Positions 31,360 to 36,265 of a DNA stretch of 47,354 nt are shown here, one piece after another. Every line of letters begins with the position of its first letter. The first letter of the stretch is position 1. The translations under genes and the position numbers were made by a program. Below the pieces are notes generated by a model. It saw only the letters and a program-made list of their open reading frames with translations, ran no database searches and was not told the origin of the DNA. The stretch covers positions 1 through 47,354 of the IMG/VR virus record IMGVR_UViG_3300009472_000001. One strand, given 5' to 3'. The stretch is from a virus (Duplodnaviria; Caudoviricetes).

Positions 31360-31764
31360 TTATGCTGGGGTAAACGTCACGCCACCAGACGACATGATAG
31401 TTGTGCTTGCCGTGATGGCGTTCGCTCCGGTTTCGCCCGTGATCTCGAAGTTTCCCAAAAACCATGTTCCAGAAAGCGTACCCAGATCGCCTATAGTGAT
31501 GTCAAAATCATAAAGCTCAGTAGGGGCGCTATCAAACGCCAGTGCCGCCAACACGGTATCCTCCAAGATCAATTCCGCAGAAACATCAATCGAAAATGTA
31601 CCAACGACAGGCAGAAGCTTTCGGACGCCAGCATCGCTCTTCGTGGTGATGTCGATGCTCTCACGGTTGACGGTAATCGAGCCAGTAGTTTGGCCCAAGA
31701 TATCCACAGCACCAGTGCCGGGATCGTATGCAATCAATAACGCGCGGCCTGCTGCTGCTGCCAT
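31360..31764 (-). CDS. Major tail tube protein
   Basis: MAAAAGRALL, NRESIDITTK, MSSGGVTFTPA; position. Confidence 0.85.
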   Translation of the reverse strand: MAAAAGRALLIAYDPGTGAVDILGQTTGSITVNRESIDITTKSDAGVRKLLPVVGTFSIDVSAELILEDTVLAALAFDSAPTELYDFDITIGDLGTLSGTWFLGNFEITGETGANAITASTTIMSSGGVTFTPA

Positions 31765-31813: not shown

Positions 31814-31842
31814 TTGCACCGCGCAAAAAGACGTGCTACCAA
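31814..31842 (+). promoter_or_regulatory. Putative promoter of the peptide/ncRNA island
   Basis: TTGCAC-N17-TACCAA followed by AAAAGGAGATATGATATG. Confidence 0.5.
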
Positions 31843-31874: not shown

Positions 31875-31949
31875 ATGGCTGTTGCGTTTTTCTTTATGAT
31901 CGTTATTTTCGGTGAAGCTGCTAAAAGTGGTGCTTTGCCGGGAATGTAA
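31875..31949 (+). CDS. 24-aa hydrophobic peptide
   Basis: MAVAFFFMIVIFGEAAKSGALPGM with strong AAGGAG RBS. Confidence 0.5.
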   Translation: MAVAFFFMIVIFGEAAKSGALPGM

Positions 31950-31955
31950 CTAATA

Positions 31956-32138
31956 TGGGCGGGCTGTAATGGTCCGTCTATCGAGCGCGGCTGATTACTT
32001 GGGAGAGAACTAGGCCGTGTCAGTAGCAATAATGCTGGCCTAGACGCGCTCAAATTACCGCAGTTGATGTGGTGTGACTACAACAGATGAATGAGTTTGC
32101 TTGTGCATTTCAAAGTAATCTGACGAAGGTGTCACACC
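31956..32138 (+). ncRNA. Array of stem-loop elements upstream of the tRNA-like RNA
   Basis: Closing stems GAGCGCG/CGCGCTC (31983/32045) with inner CTAGGCC/GGCCTAG, and GGTGTGAC/GTCACACC (32071/32131) with inner CAGAT/ATCTG. Confidence 0.45.
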
Positions 32139-32147
32139 TCATGAGTT

Positions 32148-32253
32148 GCGGCGAGTGGTGAAAATGGTTTCAACGCCTGCACTTTGACAGCTTGCGTTTT
32201 GCATGGGTCAGATAAAGTCGCAGGAAAAGCGGGTTCGATCCCCGCCCGCCGCA
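32148..32253 (+). tRNA. tRNA-like RNA with extended anticodon arm (TTG/Gln register plus about 30-nt insert)
   Basis: Acceptor GCGGCG/CGCCGC, TGGTG..TGG D arm, CCTGC/GCAGG stem, GCGGG-TTCGATC-CCCGC T arm; no encoded CCA. Confidence 0.7.
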
Positions 32254-32417
32254 ACTCAGCCAATCCCCCACATATCATCCGGCATCGAACCCGCGTACAT
32301 CGTGACGGCATCTTGCATCACGTCGTCTATGATATCGTTTATTTCCATTGCGCGGCCTCATGTGTGGTTGACATGGTTATGATAGCGTGTAATGTGGGGT
32401 GTAGGAAATTATGGAGA

Positions 32418-32624
32418 ATGATGATGTTCGCAGAGGGAAAGCGCGGCCAAATTCAAATGGCCTACGTGAGAATTTGCAAAGATAGCGGTTTTAAAATGGA
32501 CGCCATTGACGCCGCAAACCTAACGGCTAGAATTATGGGGTGTCACGGTATAGAAGTAATGGGCGCATTAGGATTTAAAAACATGAAAAACATAGCCTCT
32601 GGCGCACACCCATCAGCGCGTTAA
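32418..32624 (+). CDS. Hypothetical protein
   Basis: TTGACA at 32368, GGAGA RBS, MMMFAEGKRGQIQ... Confidence 0.6.
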   Translation: MMMFAEGKRGQIQMAYVRICKDSGFKMDAIDAANLTARIMGCHGIEVMGALGFKNMKNIASGAHPSAR

Positions 32625-33010
32625 TGATCCACAACCCCACATCTCACCACCATCTCGAACATAGCGCGGCCATTGTCTAAATACATCGGCCCCGCATATG
32701 TGCCAATCGGAACCATGTTAAACACGCCCGTATCTGCATAATCACCCCTGAGATACCGCAGCACCGCAAGCATGGCATTATCAGCCGCAACCACGGCGTC
32801 AGGATCGGCCAGCAGGTACAGCGACACGTCAGGCCATTGGACAACGCTATCCGCACCGCCATTGGTGCCAGACATTTTGAACAGCGCAACACTACCCTTG
32901 CCATTCAAATCATCGTCGGACCATCGGTAATATTTAACGGCATATCCAGACAGCAATCCGCCATCGTCTATAATGTGGTTCTTAACGCGGTTTAGGAGTG
33001 TGATGCTCAT
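32621..33010 (-). CDS. Tail terminator/completion protein
   Basis: Position before tail tube gene; GP....GR motif near C-terminus. Confidence 0.7.
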   Translation of the reverse strand: MSITLLNRVKNHIIDDGGLLSGYAVKYYRWSDDDLNGKGSVALFKMSGTNGGADSVVQWPDVSLYLLADPDAVVAADNAMLAVLRYLRGDYADTGVFNMVPIGTYAGPMYLDNGRAMFEMVVRCGVVDH

Positions 33011-35667: not shown

Positions 35668-35944
35668 TCGCCAGCGCCTCCAGTTCGTCGCGTAGCTTTG
35701 ATGCCTTCCAGCGTCCATCGGGTTCTTTTTCTGCCAGTTCACGGTAATCAGCGCGCAATTCTTCAAGTTCATCATCAACAGGCGCGGGGTTGACTACCAT
35801 CTGTTTTTGTTCGATTGCAACAGGTGCGGAGAACCGCGCCCATGATGCAGGCGGCGCTGACTTGGTGACAAGCACGGTGCCGGGCTGCAATACGGTATGG
35901 TCAAACAAGGTAATCGGTTGGGTGAGTTCGGTTGAATGGGTCAT
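35657..35944 (-). CDS. Hypothetical head-operon protein with helical C-terminal domain
   Basis: LRADYRELAEKEPDGRWKASKLRDEL motif often seen after major capsid genes. Confidence 0.7.
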   Translation of the reverse strand: MTHSTELTQPITLFDHTVLQPGTVLVTKSAPPASWARFSAPVAIEQKQMVVNPAPVDDELEELRADYRELAEKEPDGRWKASKLRDELEALANAD

Positions 35945-36162
35945 GGTTGCTCCTTTTTCGTCGCGGCCTTTACGCCAAACATAGCGGCGGTTTCAATTTG
36001 GGTAATCGCTAAAGACTTTAGTCGACCACGCTCACCAACCCCGTCAATCCCGATACTATTGATGAGATCAATCAAATCTGCGGCTTTGCGCTTGATTTGC
36101 CCAACATCGTCGTCGCCGCTTGGGTTAAAGTCAATTCCTACTAGATATTCGCCGTGTGTCAT
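35941..36162 (-). CDS. Acb2/Tad1-like helical hairpin protein (candidate immune-signal sponge)
   Basis: FNPS...IKRKAADLID...RLKSLAITQIETAAMFGVKAAT. Confidence 0.6.
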   Translation of the reverse strand: MTHGEYLVGIDFNPSGDDDVGQIKRKAADLIDLINSIGIDGVGERGRLKSLAITQIETAAMFGVKAATKKEQP

Positions 36163-36265
36163 GGTTGCTCCTATAGTTTGACGTGATGTTAGCATAAATG
36201 GACTTGACTGGCAATTTATGGGGTGATATGGGTTATGGGTAAGGAAAACATAAAGGAGATACAGA

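Follow-up and report, generated by a model that had tools for sequence, protein, structure and literature searches.

A tRNA-shaped module carrying a long arm in place of the anticodon arm ends an array of exchangeable RNA modules in a tailed phage and is a putative decoy RNA

Both the tRNA-like domain of tmRNA and the bacterial Y RNA YrlA present a tRNA elbow with a long helix in the place of the anticodon arm, and the antisense RNAs C4 of phage P1 and CI of phage P4 are phage small RNAs with a terminal helix that have been reported as RNase P substrates. For the stable RNAs species 1 (rnaC) and species 2 (rnaD) of phage T4, the function is given as unknown in the passages of PMC12685909 and PMC9697503 that deal with them. 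The benefit proposed for the engineered tRNA scaffold in PMC3753655 is that the host recognizes and precisely processes the RNA and that the passenger is stable. In addition, phage small RNAs can block immunity by mimicry of host RNAs, as reported for the RNA anti-CRISPRs (Racr, PMC10651486) and for viral sgRNAs (10.64898/2026.06.01.729453).

The DNA analysed in the present study, from a marine phage and referred to as the window, is a complete virus record of 47,354 bases with direct terminal repeats at its ends, and its gene content (primase, helicases, methyltransferases and thymidylate synthase) is that of a tailed phage. Between the major tail gene and the gene preceding it lies an insert of approximately 850 bases, which carries a tRNA-like element on the strand opposite to the structural genes, antisense between the two tail genes. 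This element is one of three modules in an array, a point absent from the preliminary description of the locus, and the array runs in the order promoter-like site, small ORF, first module, linker R1, module A and, in last position, the tRNA-like module. The parts of the insert and its flanks are listed below.

31360..31764, minus strand: major tail protein gene, flank (phrog_1407, E 9.6e-16)
31814..31842, plus strand: promoter-like site ahead of the array (TTGCAC, 17 nt, TACCAA), found by eye
31875..31949, plus strand: hydrophobic small ORF of 24 aa with a strong ribosome-binding site; no Pfam match
31982..32052, plus strand: module in first position (probable), closed by a degenerate B-type stem in an uncertain register
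32057..32073, plus strand: linker R1 of the framework (CCGC-N7-GYGG), which shares its last bases with module A
32071..32138, plus strand: module A with an 8-bp GGTG/CACC closing stem; interior homologous to the A modules of loci L436 and L441
32142..32153, plus strand: 5′ strand of the B-type closing stem (cassette framework), from 32148 on also the 5′ strand of the acceptor stem
32156..32175, plus strand: D-type arm with GG, of the 3-bp kind, third pair mismatched
32176..32224, plus strand: irregular arm of 49 nt replacing the anticodon arm
32229..32245, plus strand: canonical T arm
32247..32262, plus strand: 3′ strand of the closing stem, then G and CCA
32621..33010, minus strand: tail-region gene, flank (phrog_782)

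When folded, positions 32142-32258 gave a cloverleaf with a long lower arm at −49.2 kcal/mol (z −3.19), a stability equalled by two of 200 shuffles. As for the preliminary description, its account of the structure was confirmed in part and its idea of a non-decoding tRNA mimic was supported, whereas its spliced tRNA-Gln and its reading of the outer helix as an acceptor extension were not. The 12-bp helix is present both in the sequence and in the fold (32142-32153/32247-32258), the canonical T arm lies where it had been placed, and the CCTGC/GCAGG stem does enclose 39 nt that pair further. The D arm with GG exists as a D-type arm, but its stem is imperfect, with G.A as the third pair, and in the isolated fold another hairpin is preferred, the canonical D pairs having probabilities of 0.15, 0.07 and 0.0; we take this 3-bp kind to be that of the long-variable-arm tRNAs. 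The statement that there is no CCA was wrong as worded, because G32259 and CCA (32260-32262) directly follow the 12-bp helix, although this CCA does not adjoin A32253, the base at tRNA position 73. At 32142-32143/32257-32262, the helix terminates in the pairs U-A and G-C, followed by the G and CCA, an end that we take to resemble the acceptor end of tRNA-Gln, possibly by chance. The outer helix had been described as an acceptor stem extended outwards; it is instead the closing stem of a repeated cassette framework and not peculiar to this RNA, and its inner half doubles as the acceptor stem.

From its base upwards, the 49-nt arm consists of 5 bp, a 1-nt bulge, 4 bp, a 4-nt bulge, 4 bp, an internal loop of AGCU (32189-32192) opposite UGG (32204-32206), 3 bp and a 5-nt loop. 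Of the features of a tRNA, the T arm, the D-loop GG and a 7-pair acceptor are all present, the acceptor with a bulged A and the D stem with two of its three pairs, whereas the 5-bp stem bearing a 7-nt anticodon loop, with U33 and a purine at position 37, that a decoding tRNA (RF00005) possesses is missing. ARAGORN without introns called no gene in the window, and Rfam gave nothing for the element at the gathering score. The best Rfam match, tRNA-Sec (RF01852; 24.3 bits, E 0.032), falls below the gathering score of 47, and we rejected this identity on that score and on the lack of a UCA loop.

An intron-containing tRNA-Gln(UUG), the other interpretation offered in the preliminary description, now appears barely credible. 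The sequence CT-TTG-A is indeed present at 32182-32187 and ARAGORN with introns calls the window a tRNA-Gln(TTG), but these bases are mostly paired inside the long arm (pair probabilities of 0.58-0.99), and the homologous module in locus L348 reads CC-TTG-C at the corresponding position and receives the call tRNA-Leu(GAG), each call with a different 11-nt intron, so that neither the anticodon nor the splice position is kept. Excision of a 30-nt intron from the window RNA would leave four of the five anticodon-stem pairs. Neither a tRNA splicing endonuclease nor RtcB was found in any of five array-bearing phage records in searches with working controls, although RtcB may be encoded by the host.

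Locus L348, also reached as L269 by the framework pattern, holds a second copy of the tRNA-like module, situated between a tRNA-Thr gene and an A-B pair of modules and possessing a plain 7-pair acceptor with no outer stem. Model R1, built from the window alone, finds this copy at full length with 43.5 bits. In an alignment of the two sequences fitted to the structure of the window, 59 of 60 cells are paired and both sides have changed in 17 of the 30 pairs, a count that none of 500 shuffles reached and for which slid controls gave 0-3; in the long arm, counted by hand, this applies to eight of 15 pairs. The search for homologs with a conserved insert structure, as suggested in the preliminary description, revealed an arm fold kept through compensatory changes; L348 also retains the D-loop GG and the T arm but lacks an anticodon loop, which supports the non-decoding mimic. 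Kept in both copies are U8, G9, the D-loop A and GG, the T loop, A73 and the AGCU/YGG internal loop, whereas the acceptor pairs and the tip loop of the arm (GUUUU compared with GAAA) vary. That the kept unpaired bases are those of the D-loop, T-loop and internal loop, while acceptor pairs and tip loop vary, fits recognition of a shape and not of a codon or an mRNA.

Since ordinary tRNAs score up to 31.9 bits with model R1 and 43.5 bits with the two-sequence model R2, whole-model scores are not specific to the arm; tRNA-Leu is among the best of these ordinary-tRNA matches. The score of the arm-only alignment between the window and L348 was reached by 60 of 20000 shuffles, and a helix-bulge template of the window, with tolerances chosen when L348 was already known, fits L348 but none of 3000 shuffles and none of four other long inserts. 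An arm-only covariance model missed the L348 arm at E values up to 5. A long-arm motif gave 107 matches, of which 16 were distinct and had a 5-pair T stem, and the module itself was represented by the window and L348 only; no third homolog was found among the 107 or by model R2 over 300 loci. Taken together, we consider the element very probably to be a selected, non-decoding structured RNA module.

The array to which this module belongs was delineated by a closing-stem pattern scan of viral sequence, which gave 71 stretches, a subset of which shares a larger framework. Together with two further scans and one blastn match, this resulted in 17 loci including the window, which are not independent, as L429/L437, L432/L425 and L436/L441 are close relatives. 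The framework comprises linker R1 (CCGC-N7-GYGG), module A with a GGTG/CACC stem, three bases and module B with a TGAG/CTCA stem, and the unit is repeated two or three times in some phages. There are 23 B modules in the 17 loci (24 before removal of one spurious row, L415 at 1413), with closing stems of 9-12 contiguous bp in 22, and 15 A modules, with stems of 8-11 bp and varied pair types in 14; linkers R1 preceding A modules likewise number 15. A T arm is missing from 20 of the 23 B modules. Those of L420 and L424, however, keep a T arm and a D-type arm around unrelated long arms, indicating that the design recurs. N-CCA after the closing stem occurs in one B module and N-CC in seven of the 23, and CCA is hence not a trait of the family.

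Module interiors are exchanged between slots and between phages. The second B interior of L001 is found in L186 inside an A stem, another B interior occupies the first slot in L186 and the second in L288, and interiors recur across slots in L001, L186, L288 and L291. The interior of the window's module A has homologs in L436 2513-2581 (−) and L441 2215-2283 (−), with GAA and AGUA kept on opposite strands and both sides changed in three of 18 pairs. The GAA lies opposite the AGUA above a covarying helix, an arrangement that we liken to the loop-E/sarcin-ricin motif. A further interior, shared by the second B module of L001 and the A module of L417, could form an H-type pseudoknot with an A-rich strand and looks aptamer-like; Rfam gave no match for it. 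Some modules resemble ribozymes or riboswitches (hammerhead, pistol and preQ1), identities that we rejected as Rfam gave no support. In the B module at L441 2131-2211 (−), the D hairpin is like that of tRNA-Sec and the T arm is weak. We also observed that CCGCA of linker R1 (window 32057-32062) can pair with TGCGG in the 5′ strand of the B stem (32146-32151); other arrays have CCGCG with a CGCGG counterpart, not kept in all of them, and this pairing is a possible folding intermediate.

The direction of the arrays is given by terminator-like hairpins and by genuine tRNA genes (tRNA-Trp or tRNA-Thr) that lie on the strand of the array. In most loci, a CTTGAC-type site, 17 bases and a −10-like hexamer are visible upstream, raw counts of promoter-like sites being modestly above background; a strict pattern was matched in four of the 17 loci, and the site at 31814..31842 was called neither by this pattern nor by a consensus scan. 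L348 has a hydrophobic ORF similar to that of the window, of 19 aa, ahead of its array, and both ORFs lie between a promoter-like site and the array. The genes next to the arrays differ, the small terminase being the commonest and head, endolysin, methyltransferase and PhoH genes occurring as well, and each of five records examined holds one array. In a first-look search, which gives weak evidence, the capsid protein of the window had no match in the four other array-bearing records. The array is common to unrelated phages, and the same framework is carried by Octadecabacter Antarctic DB virus 2, a cultured podovirus of a roseobacter described in PMC9239159; the term ‘non-coding’ is absent from the passages of that article concerned with this virus.

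The slot occupied by the array in the window is variable in near relatives and absent from distant ones, a pattern as for accessories of an arms race. In the distant relatives L154, L174 and L175 (51-57% identity), the phrog_782 gene abuts the major tail gene with no insert. In L001, which is more closely related (80%), the insert contains two stems, each with a TGAG start and a CTCA end, and their interiors differ. Run X2 gave no contig across the element, an absence that carries no weight, and runs X4 and X5 covered small shares only. In a relative found in run X3, the closing stem, including its 5′ strand at 32142..32153, and the flanks are kept, but the interior consists of 74 other bases, the final 30 of which hold no T arm; the first module (31982..32052) is kept there with six listed substitutions. 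L001 has a lipoprotein-like ORF 3′ of its array. Within window 32368-32624 (+), TTGACA marks another promoter-like site, accompanied by an ORF of 66 aa for which Pfam gave no match; in the X3 relative, other sequence stands in place of this stretch. Within the head gene region, the window encodes an Acb2/Tad1 hairpin-domain protein (35941-36195, minus strand; PF24729, E 2e-12, above the cut-off), which is likely to be an anti-defence sponge.

Searches beyond this set were also performed. Direct blastn of the window insert, and of the L229 and L433 arrays, against cultured phages gave no match, nor did blastn against plasmids. The T arm plus GCAGG pattern returned at least 119 stretches, nearly all ordinary tRNAs among the matches listed, and TGAG with a T loop and CTCA-N-CCA returned 32, none having the full 12-pair stem. 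Stem-pattern scans (71 and 49 matches) yielded mostly chance matches or members of an AT-rich class of gut phages in which this stem also occurs, and a framework scan gave 28 matches, with an A stem of at least 7 pairs in 13 loci, two of which are duplicates. In prokaryote genomes, the strict pattern matched 15 times, never with an A stem of at least 7 pairs, and in one prokaryote class eight of 401 sampled genomes matched compared with four control matches, with A stems of only 4-5 pairs; the array was not found in the prokaryote genomes searched. L181, L190, L192, L242 and similar loci are low-GC gut-type phages with the same TGAG..GCGG inverted repeat, AT-rich or repetitive interiors and no Rfam match. 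Three elements of 68 nt in one actinomycete genome (L295, L306 and L307) have TGAGTTGCGG as a long inverted repeat and probably represent a small repeat element. L031 2993-3122 (−) is a tRNA whose anticodon loop carries a 54-nt insert with a T-arm hairpin of its own, and at L012 2929-3035 (+) and L152 1918-2035 (+) the upper half of a phage tRNA encloses a long or branched insert that is unrelated to the arm of the window.

The cloverleaf with its long arm, the covariation between it and a single homolog, the recurrent framework and the exchange of interiors are all directly observed. Beyond these, we propose tentatively, with a probability of roughly 0.4, that the tRNA-shaped module lacking an anticodon loop is a putative decoy presenting its long arm to a host protein. 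The host polymerase would transcribe the array from the promoter-like site at 31814, and cuts in the short single-stranded linkers would free the modules, the closing stems of 9-12 bp protecting their ends, such that the module would be released as a stable RNA. The tRNA top half may act as a stabilizing scaffold that gives the RNA its shape, as in the engineered tRNA scaffold, and the host protein might bind the invariant AGCU/YGG loop, perhaps together with the elbow. As the leader is paired to the trailer, RNase P should be hindered at 32148, and the window RNA may therefore remain at 117-121 nt; a sequestered leader is reported to block RNase P in the relevant section of PMC7897497. RNase III is a weak candidate for the enzyme that processes the array. 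Under the E. coli rules (distal box UA/UG, no G-C at proximal-box position 2 and an 11-bp helix, as given in PMC1540722), AG/CU or AG/UU fits the distal box, but a G-C pair would occupy position 2, where it blocks, in both registers tried; the consensus has been found to be loose in PMC5371410.

The partner of the putative decoy would most likely be a defence factor. This is favoured by the fast turnover of the slot among relatives and the movement of arrays between unrelated phages, as well as by the Acb2/Tad1-type protein of the phage and the existence of RNA mimics that block CRISPR immunity. One point against the decoy comes from the OLD nuclease, for which phage tRNAs, in the portion of 10.64898/2026.07.10.737580 concerned, rescue by replacing host tRNA and not by competing for the enzyme, so that tRNA supply serves as the counter-defence. 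Further points against it are the single homolog, the L348 arm missed by the arm-only covariance model, the whole-model scores that are not specific to the arm, the bulged acceptor and mismatched D pair of the window copy, and a promoter placed by eye. A wider and doubtful proposal is that the array of roseobacter-type phages is the RNA equivalent of an anti-defence gene island, promoter-driven, with fixed closing stems and swapped structured RNAs (tRNA-elbow mimics, loop-E-like hairpins, pseudoknots and true tRNAs), each a putative decoy directed at its own host protein, whether RNA-binding or immune, in which the tRNA-like module would be a natural tRNA scaffold with an aptamer arm.

Other explanations have to be weighed against a decoy. 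One is a small RNA that acts antisense in trans, undergoes processing in the manner of P1 C4 or P4 CI RNA and pairs through its loops with host or phage mRNA. It would account for stem-closed small RNAs with variable interiors behind one promoter, and RNase P could take a helix with G-CCA behind it as a substrate; we nevertheless find this explanation unlikely, as the longest exact match (≥9 nt) to the phage's own genome, 13 nt, does not exceed chance (11-16 nt in 100 shuffles), the tip loop of the arm is not conserved (GUUUU and GAAA) and Rfam gave no C4 match. LeuRS is a synthetase that ignores the anticodon. The module might accordingly mature like a tRNA, by a 5′ cut at 32148 and CCA addition after A32253, be charged by such an anticodon-blind synthetase and act on the translation machinery, e.g. 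by binding EF-Tu or donating its amino acid outside the ribosome. The A at position 73 in both copies, the Leu-like D arm, the canonical T arm, the tRNA-Leu among the best ordinary-tRNA matches and the L348 copy, with its 7-pair acceptor and no outer stem, agree with this. We judge it quite unlikely, however, because CCA at positions 74-76 is encoded in neither copy, most B modules have no T arm (20 of 23), and the would-be leader of the window is paired to the trailer over 6 bp, a sequestration that blocks RNase P in the account of PMC7897497 cited above.

It is improbable that the tRNA top half is a mere processing signal by which host tRNA-maturation enzymes cut the array, the arm having no partner. 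In both the window and L424 the acceptor-equivalent helix does start at closing-stem position 7, the distance from the T loop that RNase P would measure, but the helices, bulges and internal loop of the arm are kept through many double changes, the module is the last in its array with nothing structured downstream to release, and the T arm is missing from most arrays. A decaying tRNA gene in a recombination hot spot, with a real framework and a passenger payload, would be in keeping with the bulged acceptor and mismatched D pair, the replacement of the payload in near relatives and the negative arm-only model, yet decay does not yield double-sided changes in 17 pairs while keeping 59 of 60 cells paired, nor does it give an unrelated phage an identical pattern of bulges, and we judge it to be very unlikely. 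The fixed-sequence inverted repeats that flank exchangeable interiors also recall cassettes at the DNA level, in which the repeats would be sites of recombination or inversion and the folds incidental. Against this highly improbable explanation stand G.U pairs on one strand (L001, L420, L436 and L309), interiors that covary as RNA, interiors shared in the same orientation only (as judged by eye) and the finding of no tyrosine integrase, the one recombinase class searched for, in five array-bearing records, the window phage included. The inverted repeats may still serve as homology for swapping.

The putative decoy module and its family provide a handle on phage tRNA-like stable RNAs that have so far been assigned no function, such as T4 species 1 and 2, in the form of a compact exchangeable module with a covarying fold and an invariant loop to mutate. 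Slot-swapped natural variants are available as controls, and the framework is also present in a cultured phage-host pair. Should the modules prove to be decoys, phages would possess a modular counter-defence toolkit made of RNA only and overlooked by tRNA scanners and Rfam, and a natural version of the tRNA-scaffold trick would exist. In the main texts of the open-access literature searched, we found no published description of this tRNA-like RNA or of the array.

In comparison with known systems, the module shares with tmRNA and YrlA the combination of an elbow and a long helix replacing the anticodon arm. A tmRNA was rejected on the grounds that the module has no G.U at acceptor pair 3, no tag frame and no ARAGORN or Rfam call, and YrlA on the grounds of its normal, not permuted, arm order, the lack of a TROVE/Ro60 gene in the five records and no Rfam call. 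With the C4 and CI RNAs it has the terminal helix in common, but there is no Rfam match, no cis target in the phage genome, and no integrase or immunity region was seen in the window. Arm order, D-loop GG and T loop are those of tRNA (RF00005) and tRNA-Sec (RF01852), from which the module differs by its score below gathering, its 49-nt arm and the absence of an anticodon loop and of CCA at 74-76. Racr and viral sgRNAs mimic CRISPR repeats or guides in the passages cited at the outset, whereas the window module has a tRNA top half. The engineered tRNA scaffold likewise consists of an acceptor stem, T and D arms and an insert in place of the anticodon stem-loop (PMC3753655), but it is a laboratory construct, whereas the module occurs in nature, its arm is conserved and a further stem pairs its leader with its trailer. 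T4 species 1 and 2 are similarly phage-encoded stable RNAs, of 119-139 nt, encoded beside tRNA genes, and rnaC has a canonical T arm and an acceptor-like helix at its end with long arms within. The two are, however, not homologous to the module (for rnaC, 14.8 bits with model R1, from the T arm alone), both T4 RNAs are classed as late RNAs whereas the window array has a host-type promoter-like site, and a fixed closing-stem framework or swapping is not described for them in those parts of PMC12685909 and PMC9697503. The module thus belongs with the phage tRNA-like stable RNAs as a new variant, and the swappable array in which it is found could be a new kind of system.
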